Made by a program: the position numbers and the translations under genes. Of a stretch of DNA of 64,000 nt, positions 6,416-32,975 are shown one piece after another (positions within the stretch are counted from its first letter, which is position 1; each line of letters starts with the position of its first letter). Under the pieces are notes generated by a model. That model made no database searches. It was not told the DNA's origin and saw only the letters and a list, made by a program, of their open reading frames with translations. Origin of the DNA: a virus. Location of the stretch: the IMG/VR virus record IMGVR_UViG_3300042546_000155, one strand, 5' to 3'.

Positions 6416-6798
6416 ATCTTCCTCAATCTGTCTGCTATGGATAAATCTACCATAATCTCTTTTTGGTTCACTGTGTATTTATTAATCGTGACACTTAACT
6501 TTTCGGGCATATAGTTAAGAAATAAAAGAAATGTTTTAAGTGTGGGATAATCATCAGGTTCAACCTTTAGAAACAGCATGTTCACCGTCGCTTCTACTCC
6601 AAACATGTTGGATAGAATAATGATGTGGTTGAGTATCAATCTCTCTTTACACTCACCATCCATTCTGTATTTGCGTAACAATCTTTTGATATACTTGATC
6701 CGCTTCAAGTCCTCATCAAACTCTGATTGGAGCAGATGAGGACTTTCGTATGATTTAGCGGCGTATATCAAAAAATTACCATCATTAAGATCAAGCAT
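6412..6798 (-). CDS. Conserved T4-like phage protein
   Basis: EFDEDLKRIKYIKRLL...ERLILNHIIILxNxFG pattern recognised from T4-like genomes. Confidence 0.75.
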   Translation of the reverse strand: MLDLNDGNFLIYAAKSYESPHLLQSEFDEDLKRIKYIKRLLRKYRMDGECKERLILNHIIILSNMFGVEATVNMLFLKVEPDDYPTLKTFLLFLNYMPEKLSVTINKYTVNQKEIMVDLSIADRLRKI

Positions 6799-8405
6799 TA
6801 TTCTTTACGAGACTTCTCCGGATGCATACCATAATAGGCACCTAGAGCCATCTTCATGCGCTCTTTCTTTGATTTACCCTTGAACTTTGGATCATCGGAA
6901 TGAACAAAGTCAGAGATAACATCAGAAACCTTCATTCTCTTGGTTAGTTTTTCATTGATGGTTTCTTCCTTAGCCATTACTTTGGCCTTTGGAATACCCA
7001 TCATGCCGCCAGCACGTTTTCTAGTGGCTAACTCACGACCCTTCTTTCTTTTCTCATATGGTTCTTCACCAGTCTGATATCTGTCGGCAGCCTTTCTATG
7101 ATATCTGGCTACTGTTTCATATGAAAGTTCATCAATCTGTTTCTTTTCATAAGAACCATGCTTAGAATACTCGTTGCTGTCTGGGCCATGACCATGACGA
7201 CGAGCCATTGCCTTTAGTTCTGCTTCTGACTTACCAGCAAACTTTGCCTTCTTTTCAGCATCAGTCATACCAGCGAGTTTCTGCTTGTGCTTGATAACAG
7301 AAGCAGGCATACGGCCTTCTTTTATGTCCTTGACTTTTGTTTCTCCAGATTTTACAAGAGTTTTCTTTCCACCAGGTCCAACGTCATGAACTGTGTAACC
7401 AATCTTTTTTTCTGGGTTAAGTTTGATCTTGACTTTTTTACCTTCTTCAACAGTCTCTTCCATGTAAGGATGCTTAGGAGCAGAGGCACCAACCTTTGCT
7501 TTACCTTTCATCTTCTTATCAGCAAGAGCAACACCCTTTTCACGACCTTCACCAGCCTTGTTCTTATAAGCAACAAGTTTGCCTAGAGATACTTCGTCAA
7601 GGTTTTCTTCCTTGACAGTTTTCTTAGCAAAGCGTGTCTTACCACCCTGTTTTGAACCCTTGTAGGTATCTCCAGCACCTGGTTCAGCATCACCTGGCTT
7701 GTTTGCCTTTGGAGGTTTACGACCATACCACTTTGCGTTTGGATTAGCATCGCCGAACTTGTCATAGACGCTCTGTCCACGTGGAGCAATTGCTACCCAT
7801 CCCTCATCAAGCGAATCGGCAGATAGTTTCTTGTCCTTACGGCGCATAGAAACATCAACAGCAGATTTAGTGCTTGGGGAATCGCCCTGGCTACAATCAC
7901 AATCTCCTAGTGCAGAATGCATCTTCTCTTTAGGGGCTAATGCTCTTTGAAGATGTTTCATTGCTGCTGCATCTTCTTTGATCATTGCTTCGGCGGCACT
8001 TAGTCTCTTGTCAAGATCGTCCTTATCAACTACTCTAGCATCAATCATGAACATTGAGCCGAATAGATGATAATGGAAGAATAGGTAATAGTCACAGGGA
8101 ACTTCTTTTACGAACTCACCCTGATCTGTCATACCCATCTTGTGTCCAAACTGATGGATCTCCCATACTTCTACACCATGATTGCCTTCCATATAGACTT
8201 TGCTTGGCAACTCAATATGAAAATAAGAAAGAGCCTTACGCATCTTTGTTAGAGCAATATATGGTGTAATGCATGAACGAGTGGCAATAGCAGCCAGAAT
8301 GCCGTTAAGTTCGGCTCTGACTGCTGGATTTTTAATGTCTACGCTACCGTTACTAAGAGCGGTAGGTACGACTTCCTCTTTAAGATGATCACGGAAAGTT
8401 TTCAT
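6798..8405 (-). CDS. Probable capsid-internal protein with multiple prohead-protease sites
   Basis: N-terminus MKTFRDHLKE resembles the T4 capsid-targeting sequence; Lys-rich modules separated by (L/I/V/M)xE. Confidence 0.6.
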   Translation of the reverse strand: MKTFRDHLKEEVVPTALSNGSVDIKNPAVRAELNGILAAIATRSCITPYIALTKMRKALSYFHIELPSKVYMEGNHGVEVWEIHQFGHKMGMTDQGEFVKEVPCDYYLFFHYHLFGSMFMIDARVVDKDDLDKRLSAAEAMIKEDAAAMKHLQRALAPKEKMHSALGDCDCSQGDSPSTKSAVDVSMRRKDKKLSADSLDEGWVAIAPRGQSVYDKFGDANPNAKWYGRKPPKANKPGDAEPGAGDTYKGSKQGGKTRFAKKTVKEENLDEVSLGKLVAYKNKAGEGREKGVALADKKMKGKAKVGASAPKHPYMEETVEEGKKVKIKLNPEKKIGYTVHDVGPGGKKTLVKSGETKVKDIKEGRMPASVIKHKQKLAGMTDAEKKAKFAGKSEAELKAMARRHGHGPDSNEYSKHGSYEKKQIDELSYETVARYHRKAADRYQTGEEPYEKRKKGRELATRKRAGGMMGIPKAKVMAKEETINEKLTKRMKVSDVISDFVHSDDPKFKGKSKKERMKMALGAYYGMHPEKSRKE

Positions 8406-8415
8406 AAAACTCTCC

Positions 8416-9036
8416 TTATGGTGTCGTTACGGCTGCGTTTGCAGATACTACGCTTACTGCGCCTGTAGCAGAAACGGTGACACGGAATGTATTTCCTGAT
8501 GCAATCTCTGCGTTTGCAGTAAGTGAAGCGGATGTAGCATTGAAATAAACACCAGTAAGGTTGCTAACTGAAACCCAACCAGCACCAGCGTTACGCTGCC
8601 ATGCATAAGATAGTGTCTTTGTTGGTGTTGATGTAGCAACAACTGATAGAGTAACATTGCCAGCGCCGTTAGCACTTACAGGCTGAGTTGTAATTCTAAT
8701 TGTTGTGTCTGGGAAGACTGTATCTTCGGCGTCGCCTGACATTGAGCCCATGGCAACAACTGTTTCGTACCATACACGACCAGCCTTTAGGCCAGTTCCT
8801 TCGTGACGAATGTTCCAACCAGCATGTGCTGGCTTTGCTGCACCAGCGGCACGAGCAGCGGTGATTTCATCCGAATCAACACCGAACTGGCCGACTGTTT
8901 CGTTTGTGACAAAAGCGCCTGATGTAGTATTGCCAAATAGCACAGCCTGTTCGGTTGTATCTGTTGGCTTGTTATACTGCATTAGAACTGCAATGTCGGA
9001 GTTTGCAGCGTTATCTACTGATCCCCATAGTGGCAT
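8416..9036 (-). CDS. Virion structural protein with C-terminal Ig-like domain
   Basis: ITTQPVS...VTLSVVA...LSYAWQ...FRVTVS Ig pattern; N-terminal MPLWG...HAGW. Confidence 0.7.
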   Translation of the reverse strand: MPLWGSVDNAANSDIAVLMQYNKPTDTTEQAVLFGNTTSGAFVTNETVGQFGVDSDEITAARAAGAAKPAHAGWNIRHEGTGLKAGRVWYETVVAMGSMSGDAEDTVFPDTTIRITTQPVSANGAGNVTLSVVATSTPTKTLSYAWQRNAGAGWVSVSNLTGVYFNATSASLTANAEIASGNTFRVTVSATGAVSVVSANAAVTTP

Positions 9037-9261: not shown

Positions 9262-11523
9262 TTAAACGATCCTATACTTATATTCACCTACCTGAACTTC
9301 TTCTTTTAGTGCCTTTGCTTTTGGATCAGTCATTGACATGGCTGGTGGTGGGGCAGAAGGCTTAGGAGCAGCCGGAGTTGATGATACTGAAGGAGGATTT
9401 GATAAATCCTTACCCATAGCAAAATCTTTACTCATGCCAGTTGGTGTCTGTGGGATACCAACCTTAGCAGCAGTTGAACTAATTCCTGTGGTTGAAGATG
9501 CAGGAGGTGCAGGCTGCTTAGAGATTGAAGTTGAACCAGGTGTAGTTGGTGAAGGTGTAGCAGCAGGTGCTGGTGTCTTACCAACAGATGTTACCTTTTG
9601 CTGTGAAGCAGGCACATACTTTTCAGCGCCCTTTGCAGGGTTTATGTTTGTCTGGAACTGCTTGCCCTTGAATGAGAACTGACCAGTTGATTTATTTCCT
9701 GATGTTTCAGCTTCTTTTCTAGCTGTGGAGAATGCCTGTCCAAATGACTTTGGTGCAGGGGTTGAAGTAGTTGCAGGCTTAGCAGCAGGTGCAGATAGTG
9801 TACCTGGCTCGGTTGTCTTAACTGGAGCAATCTTGCTTGGTAGTTCCTGATTACGAACAGAAGGAGCCAACTTGCCTCTTCTAGACATATCACCTACCAT
9901 TCCCTTCTGTGTATTATCATCTGTCTTTCTTGGTGTAGTAGCAGAACGATATCCTGCAACCTCACCCTTACCAGCATCAGTCTTACGGAACACTGGATTA
10001 CCAGGTTCAGTCTTACCAGAAGGTGTGACGATATCAGCAATAGCAGAAGCAGGACCAGCAGCCTTAGCAGCGACCTTTGCAACTGTACCAAGAGCAGAGC
10101 GACCAGCAGCCTTTGTAATAGCTGTATCACCTAGTCGAGAGTAAGTGAAAGCACCTGATCTACCAGCATCGGCAGCCTTTGTAGCAGTTACGCTATTACC
10201 ACCTCTTAGTGCAGGTAGCTTTGATGCACCTGTGTCAGCAGCACCGGCGCCAGAACCAGTAGTTGCAGGAAGCTTTGTTGTTGAAGATCCTGAAACGGCT
10301 GGTAGTCTATTACCACCTGATGGAACTAGTGAGGTTCCGGTCTTTGGTGAAGGACCAGTTGCTCTAGCAGTCTGTTGAGCGCCAAACTTTGCAGTTGATG
10401 TGCCAGATGTTTTTGCACTCATACCACGATAGAAGCGTGTTCCTTGCAATCTTTGTGGACCACTTGCTCTAGCAGGTCTAGCAATCTCTGTGGATGCTGG
10501 CTGATATGTAGGTGGAACGGCAGTTGCAACAGCTTCATCGACCGACTTACCAGTTTCCTGTGCGGCGTTAAAAGATGAATCTTCCTTCATGTGCTTGGCA
10601 CGAATCTTAGCGAGAATAGCACCTGCTACCTTCTTACCACGCTCCTCAGAACCATACTTCTCACCAGCCTTCTTAGCAATCTTAGAGAACTGCTTTCCTG
10701 ACTTACCAATGTCTTTACCAGCACGAGCAGCCTTGGCTGAATATGCGGCTTCATCAACCTGTTCTTCTTCTGCAATAGAAACGCCAGGAACTGGTGCCTT
10801 TGTTACTGCACCCTTGTTGGCAAATCTCTCTTGCTTGAACTCTTGAGGAGCAGTTACACCACCCTTGGCAATGTCTTTCTTTCTTGCAACCATTTCACGG
10901 AGTGCTTCTCTGATGCTTGCTGGCTTACCACCAACTGTAACATCACCGCCGCCCTGAACTGACGAATCTCTTGGGTCTTTGAAAGACTTAATTCTTTCTG
11001 GGTTTGTTGGCTTGACATGCTTTGCTGGTGTTGATGTAACATCACCGCCGCCCTGATATGAAGGATCCTTAGGATCGGCCATACCTTCTTTTAGCTTGCC
11101 AGCGAGTTTAGCAGCACGAAGACGAGAACCCCAAACTTCGTCCTTTGGTGACTCGACCTTACCGTCTTTGTCATAATCCTTGTCGGCCTTTTCTTCTTTT
11201 GTTAGTTCACGAGCAGTTCTCTTTGGTGACTGTCCTGGGAAGCCGCCCATCTTTTTGATGTGCTCCATACCAGTCTTTTCTTCATGCTCTTTCTTCTTTT
11301 CTTTATTATCTCTATTGCCTTCTTTCATGCACTTATAGGCTTCTTCAAGGCGAGCATCATAAGCGGCTAGATTTTCACGAATGACTGCCTTGCGTGAATA
11401 AACGCCAAATTCTTCATTAACAAGGGCTTCTGCCTGACGACGAAGTTCACCGTCAGCCTGTGCTTGCTTGACTGCCTCGACAAGCGAATCAGTCTTCTTG
11501 GTATTAAACTTGTTCTCAAACAT
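9262..11523 (-). CDS. Large low-complexity probable capsid-internal protein
   Basis: Many (L/I/V/M)xE sites, duplicated DPxDxSxQGGGDVT, Pro/Ala/Thr-rich C-terminal half, CTAAATA upstream (11563-11569). Confidence 0.6.
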   Translation of the reverse strand: MFENKFNTKKTDSLVEAVKQAQADGELRRQAEALVNEEFGVYSRKAVIRENLAAYDARLEEAYKCMKEGNRDNKEKKKEHEEKTGMEHIKKMGGFPGQSPKRTARELTKEEKADKDYDKDGKVESPKDEVWGSRLRAAKLAGKLKEGMADPKDPSYQGGGDVTSTPAKHVKPTNPERIKSFKDPRDSSVQGGGDVTVGGKPASIREALREMVARKKDIAKGGVTAPQEFKQERFANKGAVTKAPVPGVSIAEEEQVDEAAYSAKAARAGKDIGKSGKQFSKIAKKAGEKYGSEERGKKVAGAILAKIRAKHMKEDSSFNAAQETGKSVDEAVATAVPPTYQPASTEIARPARASGPQRLQGTRFYRGMSAKTSGTSTAKFGAQQTARATGPSPKTGTSLVPSGGNRLPAVSGSSTTKLPATTGSGAGAADTGASKLPALRGGNSVTATKAADAGRSGAFTYSRLGDTAITKAAGRSALGTVAKVAAKAAGPASAIADIVTPSGKTEPGNPVFRKTDAGKGEVAGYRSATTPRKTDDNTQKGMVGDMSRRGKLAPSVRNQELPSKIAPVKTTEPGTLSAPAAKPATTSTPAPKSFGQAFSTARKEAETSGNKSTGQFSFKGKQFQTNINPAKGAEKYVPASQQKVTSVGKTPAPAATPSPTTPGSTSISKQPAPPASSTTGISSTAAKVGIPQTPTGMSKDFAMGKDLSNPPSVSSTPAAPKPSAPPPAMSMTDPKAKALKEEVQVGEYKYRIV

Positions 11524-11524
11524 T

Positions 11525-13573
11525 TTAGTTTCCTTTTAATTTGTTAACATAGCTATTGCTAGTATTTAGTTTTTTTCTTCCGAATATCTTTTGCTTCTCA
11601 AACTCTGCATTTGGATCTTGTCTAACATTATCAATCTGACCGGAGTTAGGTGTAGCACCCATAGAACCGTCAAATGGATCCGTTAAACTTTCTTTTTTCA
11701 GTTTGGCGACAGTCTCTTTTAGTTTCTGTTCGCCCAACTGACCATACTTTTGCTTAAATCTCTTTCTGGTTTCTTCTTTCACCATCCATCTATCAATCTG
11801 TCTATCAATACCGAGTAGGTCAATAGACTGATTATCACCAAAACCAGGACCTTTAGGAAGACCAATTTCAGGTCCAATTCTATCGCCGCCGATAGGTGCA
11901 CCTGATGGACTTCTAACTGTCTTTTCTTCTTTCTTCATCTTTTTGTTTTTAAATTTCTGTGTCAATGTCAAAACTTTCATAGGTTGAAACCCGATATCTT
12001 GACCGGGCGTGTCTTTCTGGTATCTGGAAGTTAGTTTAGATGTGCCCCAATTACCAGCGCCACCAACTAATATCTTTCTATTGTTCTTGGAGAAATCTGT
12101 ATGATTTTCATTAATCATACGCTCAAAGTTATAGTCTGTTTCTCCAAGACTGAAATTGTGTAATGCCTTTTTGAGAAAATGTAGATTGTTTCTATGTTCT
12201 TCTGTAAGAGCGGCTGCACTATTGTCAATGACATAACAATTCTCGAATAGTTGTAAATACTCTACAGTGTTTACCTGTGCAGATTGCCACTTGCTGAAAC
12301 GAGTATTCTCATTGATGACACGAGCGCCAGTTAATGCTCTTGCTTCATTGCGTTGCTTAGAAACTTCGTTAGATGTATTAACAAATACCATCATGGTCTT
12401 ATAACCACGACTTTCTAAAATGTTTTTGATTTGATTTGTCTGTTCGTAATTAGACATTGTGCCATTGACGACAATGCCTTCTCCATTAACATTATACTTT
12501 GTGAAATTCTCTTGTGAGACTTCTTTATATCCGAGTGGTGCAATTGCTTCTTTTAGTATTCTATCTTTTCCTGACCCTGGCACACCACCTAGTAATATTG
12601 CTTTGTGTTCTAGCACATAGTTCATATCAAAGTAGAAAGGATTCTCTCTACCAAAATATCTCATTACCTTTCCAGCCTCTGAGTTTGCTTCGTTCTCAAT
12701 ATCAGAACCAGTTGCTCCCTCTTTGGCAATATCTTTACCTAGTCTACCATCTTCATTCTGCTTATGATGCACCAACTCATGTGCTACAGTTCTAAAGATG
12801 TCCATAGGATGACGGTTCTTTGTATAGACCATCAGTGTCTTTGAATGTGGTGCATATCCACCGAACGATGGTTGTCCATCTCCCTTGTCATCTTTATATT
12901 CGATGACAGGCTTTTCTTTAACATTTAATTGCTTACAAGTAAAGTCAATGAATGAATGTAGAAGCTTATCGAACTCCTTACGAGACATTCCCTTTTCTTC
13001 TAGCAATGTGAATTGTTCTTGGAGATTTGCTTTAGCGGCATTAAAAATCTTACGAGCAAGCAACTTGTCTTTTGCCGCTGATGCCTTAGCGAATGTGGAG
13101 AAATCGCCCTTGCGGACTGCTGCTCTTAGTGCGGTACCAGAGATACCTTCTTTGCGTCCACCAGATGATACAACCTGAAATTTCTTGAATGGATAATGAA
13201 TCTTGGGGTTGAAGTCTTTAGCCGTCTTTGGCTTTACATACTTGCCTAGTTGCGATTTAAAATCTGCTACACGATCTTCACCAACGACAAATGTTACATC
13301 TTCGTAACCTTCATCTGACAATTTCTTACAAATGATGAATGCAGTCTTCATATTTGGATCATCAACGAAATTGACGCCAGGCATTATCTGACGAAGAAAC
13401 GCCATCTTCTGTTTTGGTGGTAGAGGATTCTTTTTGGGATCGTGAGATTGTGAGGTATAGATACGATGATCAGCACCTGTTCTATGTGCTAATCTAACCG
13501 CATAATTGATTAGTTCTGCGTGACCCGTGGTTGGCGGATTATATCGGCCAAATGTAAATACAATTTTCTTCAT
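11525..13573 (-). CDS. Fusion of cytidylyl/adenylyltransferase (HIGH-type), zincin metallopeptidase and P-loop kinase domains
   Basis: FGRYNPPTTGH and ISGTALR; AHELVHH...E; LLGGVPGSGKD...RNxxR. Confidence 0.8.
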   Translation of the reverse strand: MKKIVFTFGRYNPPTTGHAELINYAVRLAHRTGADHRIYTSQSHDPKKNPLPPKQKMAFLRQIMPGVNFVDDPNMKTAFIICKKLSDEGYEDVTFVVGEDRVADFKSQLGKYVKPKTAKDFNPKIHYPFKKFQVVSSGGRKEGISGTALRAAVRKGDFSTFAKASAAKDKLLARKIFNAAKANLQEQFTLLEEKGMSRKEFDKLLHSFIDFTCKQLNVKEKPVIEYKDDKGDGQPSFGGYAPHSKTLMVYTKNRHPMDIFRTVAHELVHHKQNEDGRLGKDIAKEGATGSDIENEANSEAGKVMRYFGRENPFYFDMNYVLEHKAILLGGVPGSGKDRILKEAIAPLGYKEVSQENFTKYNVNGEGIVVNGTMSNYEQTNQIKNILESRGYKTMMVFVNTSNEVSKQRNEARALTGARVINENTRFSKWQSAQVNTVEYLQLFENCYVIDNSAAALTEEHRNNLHFLKKALHNFSLGETDYNFERMINENHTDFSKNNRKILVGGAGNWGTSKLTSRYQKDTPGQDIGFQPMKVLTLTQKFKNKKMKKEEKTVRSPSGAPIGGDRIGPEIGLPKGPGFGDNQSIDLLGIDRQIDRWMVKEETRKRFKQKYGQLGEQKLKETVAKLKKESLTDPFDGSMGATPNSGQIDNVRQDPNAEFEKQKIFGRKKLNTSNSYVNKLKGN

Positions 13574-13599
13574 TTATTCCCTCTACAGGATTATTATAC

Positions 13600-13607
13600 T
13601 ATTTATA
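13600..13607 (-). promoter_or_regulatory. T4-type late promoter TATAAATA
   Basis: Exact match just upstream of 11525..13573. Confidence 0.7.
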
Positions 13608-13691
13608 CTTTTTCTTATCTCTAGCCTGCTTGACGATCTTTTTAATCGTCTTAATTACCGGCACAGGCTTTGGTGTCGGTTTATCTGTCAT

Positions 13692-14933
13692 TTATCTTCC
13701 CCAATTCTTGACAGCTAAGAAGTTAGCACGGCTAAACTCTAATCTATCAACTAGCTTAACAGCATCACCACCAGTTGACCAAGCGGCAACATAGCCCTCA
13801 GGAGTTGTTACCTTATAGCCACCATCAGCGGTATGTAAGAATGTGCCAAGATCGTTCACCATGTTAAACTTAGCAATCAATAGCATCTTGGCATCTATCA
13901 GTAGGTTTTGCAACTGAAAGATTTTCTTTAGATCAGATGCATGTTGACGGTACCAACGAAGAACCATATCACGCTCTGCCTTACGCTTTGCTTTGGTTGC
14001 TGGTAGTTTGGCATCATCAACGCCCTTTTGATATTTATCCCCAACCCACTTTATTAGTGCAGCCGTATGACCAGCGCCCATATGTTCACCAGCACGGACA
14101 CGCTGATTATAGAATGACATGATATGGATTCTATATGTGTCGTTGGTTGCAATCTGATTTAATAGTGAGGAAGGAATGGTTCTGAATACTGAACCAGCTT
14201 GGGAAAGAATGCCTGTTAGTTTAGCGTTCTCTGCCTTTGTGAGGGTAGCACGACCAGTAACATCAAGAAACTTGTTAGAACGATACCATACATTGCGTGA
14301 TGGTCTAAAGTTATTGACATTGATATCAAAATGTGTTTGTAGTGTCTGCATTGTCTTACCATGATATGTGGTGTGAAAGACAATACCAATCTTGGCTGCT
14401 TGAACTTGCTGTGCTATTCTAGAACCAGCGGGAACAGCGTATGTGATTGTGTTAGGACGAAATGTGATATAGCTCTTACCATCGATTGTTTCTGACTTAA
14501 GATCAGATTTAGAGAACATGAAATCGCCATGAACGATACCGGTGATACCTAGTTCAGGCAAATACTTTAGTGCATCTGATAATTTATCGGCAAGACCACC
14601 AGAGTGATTTGCTCTAACATCTGCTTCGGTATAATTCAACTTTGCATTCTTAGCAAAGATAGACTTAGAGCCGACAAAGAACTTACCATTCTCTGGATTG
14701 ATACCAGCATAGATGGCAGGTGCGCCGTCAAACTTTGTTCTAAGAATAAGAGAACCTGGTGCCTCTGATAATGTCTGCCCATCATCGGCAAACATATCTC
14801 TTAGAGCAATAAGAAACTTGATAGCATTGCGAGTGCCTGTAACACCGCCTTCTAGAACAGCATCCTCAATATGTGTAAGATGACGGTCTTTTTCTGCGGC
14901 TGCTTCTGTTAGATAGTCTGATAGTCTAATCAT
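13692..14933 (-). CDS. Conserved T4-like protein (DUF6267-like) with ligase/nucleotidyltransferase motifs
   Basis: KFDG (motif I), HGDF (III), EGYV (IV), VKLV (V); N-terminus MIRLSDYLTE. Confidence 0.7.
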   Translation of the reverse strand: MIRLSDYLTEAAAEKDRHLTHIEDAVLEGGVTGTRNAIKFLIALRDMFADDGQTLSEAPGSLILRTKFDGAPAIYAGINPENGKFFVGSKSIFAKNAKLNYTEADVRANHSGGLADKLSDALKYLPELGITGIVHGDFMFSKSDLKSETIDGKSYITFRPNTITYAVPAGSRIAQQVQAAKIGIVFHTTYHGKTMQTLQTHFDINVNNFRPSRNVWYRSNKFLDVTGRATLTKAENAKLTGILSQAGSVFRTIPSSLLNQIATNDTYRIHIMSFYNQRVRAGEHMGAGHTAALIKWVGDKYQKGVDDAKLPATKAKRKAERDMVLRWYRQHASDLKKIFQLQNLLIDAKMLLIAKFNMVNDLGTFLHTADGGYKVTTPEGYVAAWSTGGDAVKLVDRLEFSRANFLAVKNWGR

Positions 14934-28383: not shown

Positions 28384-28458
28384 TGGTTCAGGATCAAGGA
28401 TTCGAACCTCGAATGCCGGAGTCAGAGTCCGGAGTTTTACCAGTTAAACTAATCCTGA
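28384..28458 (-). tRNA. tRNA-Gln(CTG)
   Basis: Cloverleaf, anticodon loop CTCTGAC, encoded CCA. Confidence 0.9.
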
Positions 28459-28465
28459 ACAAGAA

Positions 28466-28541
28466 TGGATCGGGGTGATGGTCTCGAACCACCAACATGC
28501 AGATTCAAAGTCTGCCGTTCTGCCAATTGAACTAACCCCGA
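28466..28541 (-). tRNA. tRNA-Gln(TTG)
   Basis: Cloverleaf, loop CTTTGAA, CCA. Confidence 0.9.
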
Positions 28542-28549
28542 ATAAGAAG

Positions 28550-28635
28550 TGGTAGGGGACCCCGGTAACGATCCGGGCCAGCACATAGGCTTGGGTTTTA
28601 CAGACCCCTTGGCGTCCTTAGCCAAATAGTCCCCC
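28550..28635 (-). tRNA. tRNA-Tyr(GTA)
   Basis: Loop CTGTAAA, long variable arm, T-loop ATCGTTA, CCA. Confidence 0.85.
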
Positions 28636-28636
28636 A

Positions 28637-28710
28637 TGGTTGTTCCGACTGGTAACGATCCAGTGTCTATGTGTTATCAGCACATTGCTCTACCTTTGAG
28701 CTACGGAACA
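28637..28710 (-). tRNA. tRNA-Ile(GAT)
   Basis: Loop CTGATAA, T-loop ATCGTTA, CCA. Confidence 0.88.
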
Positions 28711-28716
28711 ATAAAC

Positions 28717-29193
28717 TCAATACTCTAGACGCTCCTGATTGCACTCAAAGGTATACCAACCTTCGGCACGAAAAGCATCGATGATACGGTGACGATCTTC
28801 AAAGATAGCACCGACTTTATATTCAGGATTAGCAGCAAGCCAATCCTTGATAATGTGAACCTTCAACTTGTCATCGTCTTCACGGTTACCACCGGGACGC
28901 ATATATAGGTCTTCATTCTCAAACGGATAATCGATATGACGACGAAGCCATTCTAAAGAGACTTCACGAAAACGCTCATCACGACCAGTCACAACGATAA
29001 TCTTATCACCTAGCATCTTACCACGGTCAAATGCAAGAGCATGGAGAACATCTAGAACTGCCTGATAAGGTGTATCCTTATCTTGTGCAGCAAAGAACTC
29101 ATCCCAATTCTTGTTACCGTTCCGTAGATGATCCCAACGGTGATGCACATTTGCCAGAGTGTTATCGATATCAAATACCCAAAGCTTTTTCAT
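28717..29193 (-). CDS. HAD phosphatase, like the 3'-phosphatase domain of T4 PseT (Pnkp)
   Basis: FDIDNTL, VTGR, LYMR...D...K, FEDR. Confidence 0.85.
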   Translation of the reverse strand: MKKLWVFDIDNTLANVHHRWDHLRNGNKNWDEFFAAQDKDTPYQAVLDVLHALAFDRGKMLGDKIIVVTGRDERFREVSLEWLRRHIDYPFENEDLYMRPGGNREDDDKLKVHIIKDWLAANPEYKVGAIFEDRHRIIDAFRAEGWYTFECNQERLEY

Positions 29194-29222
29194 TAGTTCC
29201 GTTTCCTTTCTCATTATGTCTA

Positions 29223-29251
29223 ATAATAACACACCGAAAACGGAATGTCAA
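29223..29251 (-). promoter_or_regulatory. Sigma70-like promoter TTGACAttccgttt-N-TATTAT
   Basis: 17-nt spacer. Confidence 0.65.
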
Positions 29252-29255
29252 GTAA

Positions 29256-29329
29256 TGGTGCCGGTTAGAGGAATCGAACCCCTATCAGAAGATTACGAAA
29301 CTACTGTAATGCCATTATACTAAACCGGC
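29256..29329 (-). tRNA. tRNA-Thr(CGT), weak anticodon stem
   Basis: Good acceptor and T arms; loop TTCGTAA; two U-U mismatches in the anticodon stem. Confidence 0.7.
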
Positions 29330-29334
29330 GTAAC

Positions 29335-29408
29335 TGGTGCTTCTGCCCGGTAACGATCCGAGGTCTGAGTCTTACCAAGACCCTGTTCTACCTTTGAACT
29401 ACAGAAGC
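29335..29408 (-). tRNA. tRNA-Thr(GGT)
   Basis: Loop TTGGTAA, CCA. Confidence 0.85.
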
Positions 29409-29413
29409 GAATA

Positions 29414-29487
29414 TGGTACTGGGACTAGGTATCGATCCTAGGCTCTGGGCTCCACAAACCCAGGTGCTTCCATTACACTACCCCAGC
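29414..29487 (-). tRNA. tRNA-His(GTG), no G-1, A73
   Basis: Loop TTGTGGA; base -1 is T; discriminator A. Confidence 0.87.
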
Positions 29488-29493
29488 ATGAAT

Positions 29494-29570
29494 TGGTGCC
29501 CTCGGTCAGATTCGAACTGACACTAAGTTGGGTTTGAATCAACTGCCTCTGCCAATTGGGCTACGAGGGC
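29494..29570 (-). tRNA. tRNA-Leu(CAA), short variable loop
   Basis: Loop TTCAAAC, 77 nt. Confidence 0.85.
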
Positions 29571-29571
29571 A

Positions 29572-29647
29572 TGGTGCGTCCCCTTAGAATCAAACTAAGT
29601 CCTACGGTGCTTCAAACCGTCGTGCGGATCACCTACACCAGAGACGC
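29572..29647 (-). tRNA. tRNA-Phe(GAA)
   Basis: Loop TTGAAGC, CCA. Confidence 0.82.
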
Positions 29648-29652
29648 ATAAT

Positions 29653-29727
29653 TGGTGCTTCGTATGGGTATCGATCCCATCTTTCCCGCTTGAGAGGCGA
29701 GTGTCCTAGCCAATAGACGAACGAAGC
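29653..29727 (-). tRNA. tRNA-Glu(CTC)
   Basis: Loop CTCTCAA, CCA. Confidence 0.88.
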
Positions 29728-29737
29728 ATAAACTATT

Positions 29738-29860
29738 TGTGAGGAACGAGTATGCATCCTCTTTTCAGTATCCGGGTTCCCAAGGTTACGACAGCCTCGC
29801 ACCGTCTCCCGACCTCGATGTGGCAATTCTGCTCATCCGTGATATCGATACTGCCTCACA
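29738..29860 (-). ncRNA. Candidate structured non-tRNA RNA in the tRNA array
   Basis: Closing stem TGTGAGG/CCTCACA and inner stem CAGTATC/GATACTG. Confidence 0.45.
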
Positions 29861-29865
29861 AAACT

Positions 29866-29941
29866 TGGTGGACGTAAGAGGACTTGAACCCCCAACCTTC
29901 TCCGTGCAAAGGAGTTGCTCTCCCAGTTGAGCTATACGCCC
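29866..29941 (-). tRNA. tRNA-Ala(TGC)
   Basis: Loop TTTGCAC, G3:U70, CCA. Confidence 0.9.
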
Positions 29942-29947
29942 GTTAAA

Positions 29948-30022
29948 TGGCGACCCGTAGGGGTATCGATCCCCTCTCCCTAGCGTGACAGGCTAGAGTC
30001 CACACCTGCTGACTCACGGGCC
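29948..30022 (-). tRNA. tRNA-Asp(GTC)
   Basis: Loop CTGTCAC, G73, CCA. Confidence 0.88.
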
Positions 30023-30089
30023 TTTAAACTTTATGAAGGTTACAACCCAGTCCGACGCAAACAGGTCTACCTACAATCCCTCTGACTAT

Positions 30090-30166
30090 TGGTGCCCCTC
30101 CTCAGATTCGAACTGAGAACCTTCTGATTCTAAGTCAGACACCTCTACCAGTTGGGCTAGAGGGGC
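30090..30166 (-). tRNA. tRNA-Leu(TAG), short variable loop
   Basis: Loop CTTAGAA, 77 nt. Confidence 0.87.
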
Positions 30167-30170
30167 GTAT

Positions 30171-30245
30171 TGGTGCGGACTGATGGGATCGAACCACCGA
30201 CACTCGGTATGTAACACCGATGTTCTACCTCTGAACTAAGCCCGC
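30171..30245 (-). tRNA. tRNA-Val(TAC)
   Basis: Loop GTTACAT, CCA. Confidence 0.88.
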
Positions 30246-30256
30246 ATAAATTCTAA

Positions 30257-30385
30257 TGATACAGTGACCCCAACCATTTGCTTTCGTCCTGTATCAGACA
30301 CAAAACTTACTAGAGTGTCCCCATCCGTTCGTGACGCTATCTTCGTCCAACGGCTCATATGCTCCTAGTGATAGATCACATATGA
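30257..30385 (-). ncRNA. Candidate four-hairpin ncRNA in the tRNA array
   Basis: Stems TCATATG/CATATGA, CCGTT/AACGG, GACAC/GTGTC, TGATACAG/CTGTATCA. Confidence 0.45.
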
Positions 30386-30391
30386 AGTCTC

Positions 30392-30475
30392 TGGCGGAGG
30401 ATAAAGGAATCGAACCATCACCCTTGCGGGGGCTCGGTTTTCAAGACCGATTGCTCACCATGAACGCTATCCTCC
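30392..30475 (-). tRNA. tRNA-Ser(TGA)
   Basis: Loop CTTGAAA, long variable arm, G73. Confidence 0.88.
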
Positions 30476-30480
30476 AATTC

Positions 30481-30570
30481 TGGCGGAGAGTATAGGATTC
30501 GAACCTATGGAGCCGACTAAGGCTCAACCATTTAGCAAACGGCCGCTTTCGACCACTCAGCCAACTCTCC
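30481..30570 (-). tRNA. tRNA-Ser(GCT)
   Basis: Loop TTGCTAA, long variable arm, G73. Confidence 0.9.
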
Positions 30571-30877
30571 AGGTATTCTTACATACCAAACTGCTTCTTT
30601 ACAATATCAACAGCAACATCAAACGCATTACCGATAACTTCGTCTGTCAAATGAGTATCGCACGCCCCATCCTTTTTAAGGACTTCACGCATTGCCTCAA
30701 TTGCTGCTGCTTTTGTTTCTTCTGTAATCTTAAACATATTGTCCTCACTGACTTAATAGAATATTAATATCACTTACAATAAACCCTATCACAACAGCGA
30801 TAGCGAAGAACAAAGAAAGGCGAATAATAGCCTGTAGTTTTAACTGTTCTCTACTCATATCTAGTCACCTTTCTAAA

Positions 30878-30953
30878 TGGTCTAGGTAGCTGGACTTGAA
30901 CCAACAACCTTCCCGCCCCAAACGGGATGCTCTGCCAATTGAGCTACACCTAG
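30878..30953 (-). tRNA. tRNA-Pro(TGG)
   Basis: Loop TTTGGGG, C1:G72, CCA. Confidence 0.9.
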
Positions 30954-30960
30954 ATTATAA

Positions 30961-31034
30961 TGGCACCAGTGGAAGGAGTCGAACCCTCGCCCTCTGTTTT
31001 GGAGACAGATGTGCTACCGTAACACTTCACTGAT
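30961..31034 (-). tRNA. tRNA-Trp(CCA)
   Basis: Loop CTCCAAA, G73. Confidence 0.9.
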
Positions 31035-31039
31035 AAACT

Positions 31040-31115
31040 TGGATGCGGACCCATGAGTCGAACAACGGCTCTCTTGCTTATGAGACAAGAATGGTCTCCG
31101 GACCACCTGACCGCT
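31040..31115 (-). tRNA. tRNA with CAT anticodon, degenerate (initiator-like 1:72 mismatch)
   Basis: Loop CTCATAA, irregular D and T arms, CCA. Confidence 0.6.
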
Positions 31116-31232
31116 AAAAACTTGTAAGTAGAAGAAACGCTCCACGGTTATATGTGGATACTTAATGCTAATGTGCGAACCAAAAGCATGTTCTCCTCAG
31201 GTCTCGCATTACCCGAGTACCGTCCTTCATGT

Positions 31233-31307
31233 TGGTGCTGATAGTTGGGATCAAACCAACCTTTAAAGCCTTATGAGGACTCCTCGACATCTTGCCGACC
31301 TACCAGC
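31233..31307 (-). tRNA. tRNA-Met or Ile2 (CAT)
   Basis: Loop CTCATAA, CCA. Confidence 0.8.
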
Positions 31308-31313
31308 ATTATA

Positions 31314-31394
31314 TGGCCACCACGAGAGGAGTCGAACCTCTATTTACATCCAGTTACCTTACTCTCGGTTCGTAGCCGAGGGGGATACGTGGTG
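31314..31394 (-). tRNA. Non-canonical D-armless tRNA-Arg(ACG)-like RNA
   Basis: 7-bp acceptor, perfect anticodon arm CTCGG-CTACGAA-CCGAG, perfect T arm, CCA; D arm replaced by TATCCCC; 22-nt variable region. Confidence 0.7.
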
Positions 31395-31398
31395 ATAT

Positions 31399-31473
31399 TG
31401 GAGCGGGTGATCAGAATCGAACTGACGACCAACAGTTTGGAAGACTGTGACTCTACCACTGAGTTACACCCGC
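31399..31473 (-). tRNA. tRNA-Gly(TCC)
   Basis: Loop CTTCCAA, U73. Confidence 0.92.
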
Positions 31474-31477
31474 ATAT

Positions 31478-31553
31478 TGGAGGATCCAGTCGGCCACGAT
31501 CCGACAACCTTGGGATTAAAAGTCCCCTGCTCTGCCAATTGAGCTATGGATCC
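31478..31553 (-). tRNA. tRNA-Lys(TTT)
   Basis: Loop CTTTTAA, T-loop ATCGTGG. Confidence 0.87.
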
Positions 31554-31560
31554 ATTGTAT

Positions 31561-31636
31561 TGGTGAACCTGGAAGGAATCGAACCTTCAACACACGGATT
31601 AAGAGTCCGCTACTCTACCAATTGAGTTACAGGTCC
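31561..31636 (-). tRNA. tRNA-Lys(CTT)
   Basis: Loop CTCTTAA, CCA. Confidence 0.92.
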
Positions 31637-31641
31637 ATAAT

Positions 31642-31716
31642 TGGTGACCCCTAGGAGAATCGAACTCCTCTTACAAGATTGAAAGTCTCGTGTCCTAACC
31701 GATAGACGAAGGGGCC
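31642..31716 (-). tRNA. tRNA-Glu(TTC)
   Basis: Loop CTTTCAA, CCA. Confidence 0.92.
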
Positions 31717-31720
31717 GTAT

Positions 31721-31798
31721 TGGCTCGGCGGGTTGGATTCGAACCAACCTCATTCTCGGTTAACAGCCGAGCGCACTCACCTAGAGTGCTACCGCCGA
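31721..31798 (-). tRNA. tRNA-Asn(GTT)
   Basis: Loop CTGTTAA, G73. Confidence 0.9.
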
Positions 31799-31800
31799 AT

Positions 31801-31955
31801 ATTACTATTACGCCAACGGACTAGAGATAACCGATAGGCTCTCCTATCACCGTTCAGCCAATTTTATGCAAGAATCGAACTTGCTCCGGATCAATTGCAA
31901 CCGTGTTACTGTCAACGTTTCGAACCGCAATCTAATCCGTTGGCGTAATAGTAAT
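31801..31955 (-). ncRNA. 155-nt RNA closed by a 20-bp perfect (25-bp with one G-U) stem and containing a T-arm hairpin
   Basis: ATTACTATTACGCCAACGGA/TCCGTTGGCGTAATAGTAAT; inner GCAAG-TTCGATT-CTTGC. Confidence 0.6.
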
Positions 31956-32029
31956 GGAGGGCTGCCTCGGAATCAAACCGAGTCCTCAAGGATTTGCAGT
32001 CCTGTGCCTTATCATCCGACCCGCAGCCC
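31955..32029 (-). tRNA. tRNA-Cys(GCA)
   Basis: Loop CTGCAAA, U73. Confidence 0.87.
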
Positions 32030-32036
32030 AATTACT

Positions 32037-32065
32037 ATATTACTATAGCCAGATTCAATTGTCAA
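32037..32065 (-). promoter_or_regulatory. Sigma70-like promoter at the head of the tRNA array
   Basis: TTGACA-N17-TAATAT just upstream of tRNA-Cys. Confidence 0.65.
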
Positions 32066-32071
32066 ACAGCA

Positions 32072-32254
32072 TCAGGCTATCTTACTCTCCTTGAACTTGC
32101 GTTGCAAGGAAACAGTAGCCTTATTTTTGAATGAATAGTATTTGCTCCATGCCTTTTCGAAGTCAAGGAATGTGCCATTATACACCGTCTTGCCAGACTT
32201 GTCAATGGCTTCTACTATCCAGTAGGCGCTACGCTTTACGGTTTCCTCTTTCAT
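32072..32254 (-). CDS. Hypothetical phage protein
   Basis: ORF with RBS GAGG. Confidence 0.5.
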   Translation of the reverse strand: MKEETVKRSAYWIVEAIDKSGKTVYNGTFLDFEKAWSKYYSFKNKATVSLQRKFKESKIA

Positions 32255-32385
32255 GCCGTAACCTCTTCTCTCAATCGTTCACATACTATATAGGCAACAA
32301 AACGCATAGTCAAGAACTTTTTTTACATTTTTTGTGCGACAATTTGACGCACCCTTAGTCTATAGACTGGATAGACTGTTTACAT

Positions 32386-32580
32386 TTACTTTAGGACTGT
32401 ATCGTAGTATTCCCGCTGCTTTTGTTCCATAGCAGCCTTTCGTTCCTTCTTGAAATTTTCAAACCACTCTTTAAGTCCAACATCATTCGTAAGATGTTCC
32501 TGCCACTGTCTTTCGGACATTTGCCCAGAAATGTAGCACTCAAACAGTGGGTAAAACTTATCTTCCATTTCAGTCTCCAA
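32386..32580 (-). CDS. Hypothetical phage protein
   Basis: ORF with GGAG before MEDKF. Confidence 0.5.
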   Translation of the reverse strand: METEMEDKFYPLFECYISGQMSERQWQEHLTNDVGLKEWFENFKKERKAAMEQKQREYYDTVLK

Positions 32581-32583
32581 ATT

Positions 32584-32674
32584 TGGTAGGGGTGCCAGGT
32601 AACGCTCCTGGTCGAGAACGGTAATCGGCCGCTAAAGGGTTTATAAGTCCCTCTTGTGTCTTACACCCACCCCC
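32584..32674 (-). tRNA. Atypical tRNA with TAT (Ile AUA) anticodon and long variable arm
   Basis: Loop CTTATAA, tiny D-loop, T-loop AGCGTTA, CCA. Confidence 0.65.
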
Positions 32675-32679
32675 ACATG

Positions 32680-32880
32680 TTACAGATATCCCAGAATACC
32701 ACCGATTGGTAATACAAAGATACCGATACAGCGAAGGATAAACTTTGCCGTGATAGGATTGTCAATGCTATGCCAGATAGCCATGACATTGAAGATCCAA
32801 CCTAGTGCTAGTGCTGCACCCACGGTAAAGAATCCAGCAACAGTACCAATAGCAAGAATATCGTCTAGTTTCTGACTCAC
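32680..32880 (-). CDS. Small two-TM membrane protein
   Basis: Two hydrophobic segments; GTG start after AAGGA. Confidence 0.55.
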   Translation of the reverse strand: MSQKLDDILAIGTVAGFFTVGAALALGWIFNVMAIWHSIDNPITAKFILRCIGIFVLPIGGILGYL

Positions 32881-32898
32881 TTTCACATCCTTATATAA

Positions 32899-32975
32899 TG
32901 GCGGTCCCGGAAGGACTCGAACCTTCAACAACCCGCTTAGAAGGCGGATGCTCTATCCAGTTGAACTACGGAACC
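32899..32975 (-). tRNA. tRNA-Arg(TCT)
   Basis: Loop CTTCTAA, A20, CCA. Confidence 0.92.

Follow-up and report, generated by a model that had tools for sequence, protein, structure and literature searches.

A nucleotidyltransferase-zincin-kinase protein of an uncultured T4-like phage as possible polyvalent head cargo

In phage T4, the internal proteins IPI-III and Alt are processed by the prohead protease gp21. The T4 capsid-targeting peptide is represented by the first 10 residues of IPIII, in which positions 4 and 7 serve targeting and positions 8 and 10 serve processing (PMC9026906). In another group, the phage polyvalent proteins, unrelated catalytic domains are strung around a zincin-like metallopeptidase (PMC5512222; Iyer, Burroughs, Anand, de Souza, Aravind 2017). 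P0001, a protein of IMG/VR virus record IMGVR_UViG_3300042546_000155, shares features with both. It is encoded on the minus strand (11525..13573) of a stretch of 64,000 nucleotides, called the window below, by an open reading frame (ORF) that stays open for 682 codons and joins a nucleotidyltransferase (NTase), a zincin, a P-loop kinase and a tail in 682 amino acids. With about equal weight for and against, P0001 could be a small head-cargo effector of 'polyvalent' type from an uncultured T4-like phage, its enzymes and disordered tail being arranged as beads on a string.

As in polyvalent proteins, several unrelated catalytic domains are combined in P0001, and its metallopeptidase shows the zincin order of elements. 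Relatives of P0001 add ART-PolyVal, lysozyme and Pol-beta NTase domains, which gives a shared domain network with these proteins. Polyvalent proteins are predicted to accompany the DNA into the cell and to act early in infection, and P0001 may do likewise. Unlike them, P0001 is much smaller (three enzymes in 682 residues), and its setting is T4-like, with targeting-like leaders and a protease of gp21 type; the text of PMC5512222 makes no mention of HIGH NTase, zeta-like kinase or HicA domains. P0001 resembles the T4 internal proteins in its T4-like host phage, in the gp21-family protease of related genomes and in the 10-residue leaders of its neighbours and distant homologs. Some of its relatives carry an Alt-like ADP-ribosyltransferase (ART), fused either to the NTase-zincin-kinase protein or to DUF6267, the protein encoded upstream. 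In contrast to the T4 proteins, P0001 itself is leaderless, its proposed sites lie between enzymes whereas T4 trims termini, and T4 has no NTase, zincin or kinase cargo.

The third comparison is provided by the cyanophage 'cytidyltransferase' (T4-like gene cluster 190; S-SZBM1_140, S-CREM2 ORF154, Syn19_174 and its S-PM2 counterpart). Its NTase is homologous to that of P0001 (37-43% identical), DUF6267 is encoded upstream and a disordered protein downstream, and the cyanophage proteins have been found in virion proteomes (PMC9146016, PMC10665884). The cyanophage proteins differ from P0001 in bearing leaders and in not being fused to a zincin or kinase. An earlier note on this DNA knew of no description of the P0001 architecture. 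A literature search likewise found no paper on this exact NTase-zincin-kinase fusion; the claim has to be narrowed to the fusion, since polyvalent proteins and virion-borne cyanophage cytidylyltransferases have already been described.

The three-enzyme composition is confirmed, Pfam and PHROGs profiles agreeing with AlphaFold folds. All motifs quoted in the earlier note are present in the ORF (TTGH at 15-18, ISGTALR at 144-150, HELVH at 265-269, GGVPGSGKD at 329-337), together with the junction strings NLQE/LLEE (183-193), YVLE/HK (319-324) and MINE (486-489). In the full-length AlphaFold model (predicted local distance difference test score, pLDDT, 78; predicted template modelling score, pTM, 0.41), the folded parts are residues 1-186, 194-320 and 323-490, and pLDDT falls below 50 at 187-193, a disordered linker, and after 493. 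By the pTM, this linker and the disorder after 493, the domains look mutually independent. Among P0001 homologs, all three enzymes keep their catalytic residues with few exceptions or none. A sequence search of P0001 against PDB chains gave nothing useful, and PADLOC gave no match.

Residues 1-186 (13016..13573, minus strand) form a HIGH-type (cytidylyltransferase-like) NTase with the motifs T15-x-G17-H18 and S145...R150. Pfam CTP_transf_like (PF01467) matches residues 7-151 with 29.9 bits (cut-off 21), the (H/T)xGH and SxxxxR motifs of this family are in place, and PHROGs assigns the N-terminus to phrog_3041 and phrog_395, 'cytidyltransferase'. In 35 NTase domains G9, R10, G17, H18, S145 and R150 are invariant; in the full-length model the domain has pLDDT >90. 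The nearest solved folds are those of the NadM/NadD adenylyltransferases of nicotinamide and nicotinic acid mononucleotide (NMN and NaMN; E about 6e-5), and because of this fold the domain may work like an NMN adenylyltransferase (NMNAT). Membership in NadR, NadM or NadD is not established, the equivalog models TIGR01526 (NadR) and TIGR00482 giving 13.8 bits against a cut-off of 341 and 14 against 112.

Residues 194-322 (12608..12994, minus strand) form a minimal zincin-like metallopeptidase, with H265-E266-x-x-H269 at nucleotides 12767-12781 and E293/E295 on the next helix. Its separate AlphaFold model (residues 188-326, alignment of 50 homologs) has pLDDT 84.9 and the order helix, three strands, HExxH helix and Glu helix of a minimal zincin. 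H265, E266, H269, E293 and E295 vary little or not at all among homologs, and no other part of P0001 is as conserved as the zincin. PHROGs gives a weak metalloprotease-family match in the middle of the protein. Foldseek and VIA-align retrieved zincins only, all weakly (best E 6e-3, range to 0.6; VIA Z 7-8.6): selecase, abylysin, jannalysin, IrrE/PprI, Wss1, SPRTN, CapP, lethal factor, ArdC, aminopeptidase catalytic domains and YbeY. Many relatives have a domain of ~120 residues before the zincin, for which a suspected ParB-like identity was not confirmed by Pfam.

The P-loop kinase occupies residues 323-489 (12107..12607, minus strand), with the Walker A motif GGVPGSGKD at nucleotides 12563-12589 and an R408-x3-R412 lid. 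It is of the zeta-toxin/polynucleotide kinase (PNK)-like type by its profile, Walker A lysine and lid arginines. Pfam Zeta_toxin (PF06414) matches about 326-451 with 39.1 bits (cut-off 22.3), and AAA_33 falls just under its cut-off (26.9 bits vs 27). In the alignment S-G-K-D is invariant and R408 and R412 of the RxxxR lid are nearly so; the Walker A motif is unusual in reading GKD, Asp replacing the Ser/Thr of GK[ST]. The best fold match is the Pnkp kinase of C. thermocellum (E 9.5e-6), followed by adenylate and UMP/CMP kinases; a kinase profile run against PDB chains matched only the P-loop segments of adenylate kinase and zeta toxin.

The conserved tail (residues 490-682; 11528..12106, minus strand) is mostly disordered, carries VGGAGNWGT..DTPGQ and includes a helical hairpin at 591-629 (W596, Y610, G611, K617). 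No Pfam family matches it, and identification as DUF6321 was ruled out. A likeness of VGGAGNWG to the S-SRM01 N-terminal extension (E 0.37, other register) was also rejected. In the kinase-less relatives P0166 and P0169 the tail follows directly after the zincin.

The full architecture is found in >500 metagenomic proteins. In all ten related IMG/VR loci examined the gene order is DUF6267, P0001 gene, disordered protein, 206-residue protein, 535-residue protein, two small genes and primase, and the order is matched in the Kyanoviridae cyanophages Syn19, S-SRM01 and S-SZBM1. A nucleotide search against GenBank phages gave short cyanophage NTase matches only and no close cultured phage. Besides primase, the window encodes a DnaB-like helicase, UvsX, a family-B polymerase and a clamp loader. 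Two related complete genomes, of 172 and 169 kb, each encode a Peptidase_S77 protein, the T4 gp21 family (125 and 121 bits, above the Pfam cut-off). The phage is therefore T4-like, as had been assumed earlier.

Packaging of P0001 in the head is suggested indirectly by its neighbours and homologs. The DUF6267 gene (13692..14933, minus strand; 413 amino acids, Pfam 338 bits, ligase-like motif KFDG), the upstream partner of P0001, begins with the leader MIRLSDYLTE then A, and the pattern M.[RK][LF]..[YFH][LI].E then A is conserved in 47 orthologs. A basic, lysine-rich protein of 535 residues (6798..8405, minus strand) begins with MKTFRDHLKE then E, a near-textbook T4 capsid-targeting peptide conserved in 26 orthologs. 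The loose capsid-targeting pattern fits 4 of the 213 ORFs in the window, and two of the four are these members of the P0001 cluster. The leaders of the cluster are in register with the T4 peptide (hydrophobic at 4 and 7, L/I at 8, E at 10). Leaders are also borne by distant NTase homologs, namely P0238 (MKTFGSYLAE then A), P0252, P0246, P0243, P0178 and P0269, and by the cyanophage NTases Syn19_174 (MKKFSAFLNE/A), the S-SRM01 cytidyltransferase (MKNFHQFITE/A) and S-SZBM1_140 (MRFRQFIIE/A).

The last of these is 37% identical to the NTase domain of P0001 (E 3.5e-25), and in purified S-SZBM1 virions it was the sole enzyme detected, along with its downstream neighbour _139 and with _136 (PMC9146016). 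By position, S-SZBM1_139 is the counterpart of the 753-residue ORF that follows P0001 and S-SZBM1_136 that of the 206-residue protein. The cytidylyltransferase ORF154 of S-CREM2 was detected in virions too, and its authors describe such proteins as a frequent find in cyanophage virions (PMC10665884). Since relatives of the cluster are found in phage particles, P0001 is probably cargo that is co-injected with the DNA.

In each lineage examined the leader is found on either DUF6267 or the NTase: on the NTase in Syn19 and S-SZBM1, on DUF6267 in the P0001 clade and the P0133 locus. Other phages have fusions of DUF6267 with HIGH NTases, in either order, and with ARTs; in NTase-DUF6267 fusions the linker before DUF6267 reads ELLTE then A..THLTHLE, which is the leader of the free DUF6267. 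Because either partner bears the leader and the two are often fused, it is a reasonable inference from the sequences that DUF6267 and the NTase protein are packaged as a pair. One run of complex prediction for DUF6267 and the NTase domain scored 0.00, which counts neither way on binding.

The earlier note had proposed a head-packaged polyprotein with a prohead-protease site, (I/L)xE, at every junction, and conservation of the linker glutamates and exchange of domains exactly at the linkers are what such sites would lead one to expect. The motif [LI]xE occurs 12 times in P0001 (5.2 +/- 2.0 in shuffles), and junction conservation was scored in 120 full-length homologs. Junction 1 (residues 184-193; 12995..13024, minus strand) consists of two tandem [LI]xE motifs, LQE...LLEE, in a linker of low model confidence; L184 is kept in 120/120 homologs and E186 in 116/120, [LI]190 in 103/120 and E192 in 106/120. 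Junction 2 (residues 319-323; 12605..12619, minus strand) reads Y-V-L-E then H, with [VI]320 in 119/120 and an invariant E322 (120/120), the P2 and P1' positions being variable. Junction 3 (residues 483-489; 12107..12127, minus strand) reads F-E-R-M-I-N-E, and the pattern F..M[LI](x)E is near-universal. At each junction P3 and the Glu are conserved and P2 varies. Junctions 1 and 3 carry [LI]xE as had been claimed; YVLE of junction 2 is V-x-E, so the claim does not hold for every junction.

Domain exchange follows the same boundaries, modules entering at junctions 1, 2 and 3 and each being bounded by hydrophobic-x-Glu. At junction 1, a sizeable homolog subgroup (P0072, P0010, P0043 and other homologs of 720-750 residues) has a HicA-toxin domain (PF07927) between NTase and zincin, set between ...[LI]xE and ...IRE then E. 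Variants at junction 2 hold a basic module of ~100 residues with Glu on either side, and variants at junction 3 hold an insert of ~130 residues after ...ML.E. The tail starts after ...L-x-E then VGGAGN[WF]GT, whether the kinase or the zincin precedes. A zincin-first relative, P0236, starts with MKTFKEIKEE then V, so that the end of its leader is the junction 1 motif of the fused proteins. Among 48 relatives of the zincin-kinase core, the additional domains include ADPrib_exo_Tox, ART-PolyVal, DUF3990, Phage_lysozyme, Glucosaminidase, LysM and NTP_transf_2; the relative P0133, extended by an ART, lies in matching synteny.

Several observations weigh against packaging and cleavage. The N-terminal targeting peptide of ~10 residues ending in [LI]xE is absent from P0001 and its close relatives, in which the start MKKIVFTFGRYNPP is the first strand of the NTase. 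The gene stands among replication genes, far from the head module. The gp21-type protease is evidenced by the two related complete genomes that share the cluster, not by the sequence of this phage itself. The virion detections concern cyanophage homologs outside the P0001 clade, and the authors of the S-CREM2 study warn that non-structural proteins, if abundant, may be carried along in virion purification (PMC10665884). No cultured phage carrying the fusion was found in the GenBank phage search. Regarding the junctions, the linker at junction 2, where the motif is V-x-E, has only 2-3 residues between the end of the zincin fold and the first kinase strand. The folded kinase holds [LI]xE motifs (340, 420, 442) that are just as well conserved; therefore conservation alone is not the mark of a cleavage site. 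The hydrophobic residues of junction 3 are spaced i, i+3, i+4, as is typical of a packing helix, and the motif may be simply the last kinase helix. Junction 3 also lines up with the T4 capsid-targeting peptide at positions 4, 7, 8 and 10 of the latter, and the residues after it are disordered in the model.

On balance, head packaging of P0001 is slightly favoured. The idea put forward earlier gains from the gp21-type protease in related genomes, the leaders of neighbours and distant homologs, the virion cyanophage homologs and the swapping of modules at Glu boundaries; it loses from the lack of an N-terminal targeting peptide in P0001 and from the non-canonical junction 2. Given packaging, cleavage at junctions 1 and 3 is a tentative proposal for which somewhat less than even chances can be claimed, and cleavage at all three junctions is unlikely overall.

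For packaging, cleavage and substrates we infer the following course. P0001 would be made late in infection and would enter the prohead, perhaps carried by the leader-bearing DUF6267 partner or via its own tail. The gp21-type prohead protease could then trim exposed [LI]xE linkers that flank the folded domains, junctions 1 and 3 being the most plausible sites, and the trimmed P0001 would be ejected with the DNA. In the new host cell its enzymes could act on nucleotides, NAD+ or RNA ends before phage gene expression. DUF6267, P0001, the disordered protein and the 535-residue basic protein would form a cluster of conserved genes for head-internal proteins, probably expressed late.

Two kinds of function could be served by the enzymes. 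Supply or regeneration of NAD+, either for injected NAD-using enzymes or against NAD depletion, is a tentative suggestion; healing and sealing of cleaved RNA is a slightly less favoured one. A broader proposal, rather unlikely when taken as a whole, is that aquatic T4-like phages possess a modular head-cargo 'enzyme cassette', split and joined at interchangeable leader/linker peptides that act both as targeting signals and as prohead-protease sites, and maturing into an injected toolkit. The cassette would comprise an NMNAT-like NTase, a zincin, a PNK-like kinase, ligase-like DUF6267, a phosphatase of haloacid dehalogenase (HAD) type, HicA and an Alt-like ART; the toolkit might perform NAD+/RNA repair and host modification, pre-empting defences that deplete NAD or cut tRNA.

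Alternatively, P0001 could be an uncleaved cytoplasmic multifunctional enzyme that never enters the capsid, the fusion co-localizing one pathway: NadR-like NAD+ salvage, or RNA end-healing with ligase-like DUF6267. This explanation is not likely. The absence of an N-terminal leader and the position of the gene between primase and the helicase/polymerase genes agree with it. A HIGH NTase paired with a P-loop kinase is a known metabolic design, as in NadR; NadR (6gyf) and ATP sulfurylase-APS kinase both turn up as fold matches, NadM/NadD are the best fold matches of the NTase, and some relatives (P0238) join the NTase straight to the kinase and omit the zincin. The score of P0001 is however far under the NadR equivalog cut-off, and its Walker A motif is GKD instead of GK[ST]. 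The RNA variant recalls T4 Pnkp and Rnl1, given the Pnkp fold match of the kinase, the ligase-like neighbour and the HAD-like gene of related loci, whose DxDxT protein would complete such a kinase-phosphatase-ligase set; unlike Rnl1, DUF6267 is assigned as a ligase by motifs, with no PDB sequence match. The HAD-like gene, however, has a targeting-like leader of its own, and it is not obvious what such a pathway would need a strictly conserved zincin for. The leaders of neighbours and homologs and the virion detection of cyanophage homologs (PMC9146016) also disagree with a cytoplasmic enzyme, and fusions to Alt-like ART, lysozyme and HicA suggest injected effectors.

The zincin of P0001 is itself an alternative processing enzyme to the prohead protease. 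P0001 would then be a self-processing polyvalent protein, whose linkers are cut by its own zincin, in the head or after injection, the Glu boundaries reflecting zincin specificity. The zincin metallopeptidase is the hub of phage polyvalent proteins, for which autoproteolysis has been proposed, e.g., for P1 DdrB (PMC5512222), although the text of that paper presents no demonstrated self-cleavage by such a zincin. In P0001 the high conservation of the zincin fits this explanation, as does the finding that its two boundaries hold the best-conserved Glu, whichever domain comes next; its fold also resembles the self-inhibited minigluzincins. Against this, [LI]xE also ends the leaders of zincin-less neighbours, which fits a shared trans-acting protease such as gp21, and the zincin of S-SRM01 is a separate stand-alone gene (132 amino acids) upstream of the cytidyltransferase. 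Self-processing is considered quite improbable.

Least probable of all is that the zincin is an ImmA/IrrE- or Wss1-like effector or regulator cutting a host protein such as a defence factor or repressor, with hydrophobic-x-Glu as ordinary helix ends: IrrE/PprI, Wss1, SPRTN, CapP and ArdC are among its fold matches, one P0001 homolog is labelled ImmA (M78) peptidase by its source, Peptidase_M78 occurs in 14% of one Atlas structural-neighbour cluster, and conserved [LI]xE motifs lie within folded domains too, but Pfam PF06114 (Peptidase_M78, ImmA/IrrE) gives no match to the zincin at E up to 1, the same-motif bounds of inserted modules and the interchangeability of leader and linker are left unexplained, and such a role would be compatible with packaging anyway.

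If P0001 is indeed packaged and processed, T4 capsid targeting and gp21 maturation would constitute a general delivery platform for whole enzymes, beyond Alt and the small internal proteins. Enzymes acting on nucleotides, NAD+ or RNA ends would then be injected by a large group of uncultured T4-like phages from aquatic settings at the very start of infection, when abortive-infection and NAD-depleting defences act. This would also provide a testable function for the cyanophage 'cytidyltransferase' and DUF6267, both of which are conserved and repeatedly found in or beside virion proteomes. If packaging fails, P0001 is still an undescribed NTase-zincin-kinase fusion, though a less interesting one.

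Among the neighbours, DUF6267 carries the motifs KFDG, HGDF, EGYV and VKLVDR in the order of the ligase/capping-enzyme superfamily (covalent-nucleotidyltransferase-like), by which it is putatively ligase-like. Comparison with PDB chain sequences gave no match to solved structures, an Atlas look-up returned its own family only, and a literature search on DUF6267 found no paper. In 14 related loci an extra gene of ~210 residues (L051:9217-9846, L002:9238-9876 and 12 others), absent here, lies between DUF6267 and the P0001 homolog. Its product has the leader MKKFTEYLTE then V and the HAD-type DxDxT motif (FDIDDTLF); with this motif and weak DUF2608 matches, it is a putative HAD protein. This protein, the kinase and DUF6267 would jointly be akin to a repair set of kinase, phosphatase and ligase.

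The low-complexity ORF of 753 residues (9262..11523, minus strand) has its ATG just downstream of the P0001 stop. It is rich in Ala, Pro, Ser, Thr, Gly and Lys, is probably disordered and holds a duplicated QGGGDVT motif; its N-terminus reads ...DSLVE then A, and ...DPLVE then A is kept in 41 orthologs. With DUF6267 and the 535-residue protein, this brings to three the genes of the cluster whose products begin with a T4 capsid-targeting-like leader that ends in [LI]xE. The 206-residue protein (8416-9036, minus strand) starts with MPLWGSVDNAANSD. Cyanophage proteins at its position start alike (MSLYGR.DS.AN), and their annotations name head or virion structural proteins; BLAST did not confirm homology to them. 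The 535-residue protein matched no Pfam, PHROG or NCBIfam family.

A T4 late-promoter-like octamer, TATAAATA (13600..13607, minus strand), is located 27 nucleotides upstream of the P0001 ATG. The window shows no enrichment of the exact octamer (5 found vs 4.2 expected). The shorter NTAAATA has 25 copies on the coding (minus) strand of the whole window vs 6 on the plus strand, with copies 27, 28 and 40 nucleotides upstream of the P0001, DUF6267 and 753-residue ORF starts, respectively. This placement and strand bias are consistent with late promoters of T4/cyanophage type; the late promoter claimed earlier for P0001 stands as to the octamer and the 25:6 bias, and enrichment of the exact octamer is not borne out. 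The gap between DUF6267 and P0001 is filled by a Lys/Pro-rich ORF of 30 codons (13599-13691, minus strand), the stop codon of which overlaps TATAAATA. Elsewhere in the window, 25 tRNA genes covering most amino acids are located at 28384-32975 (minus strand).

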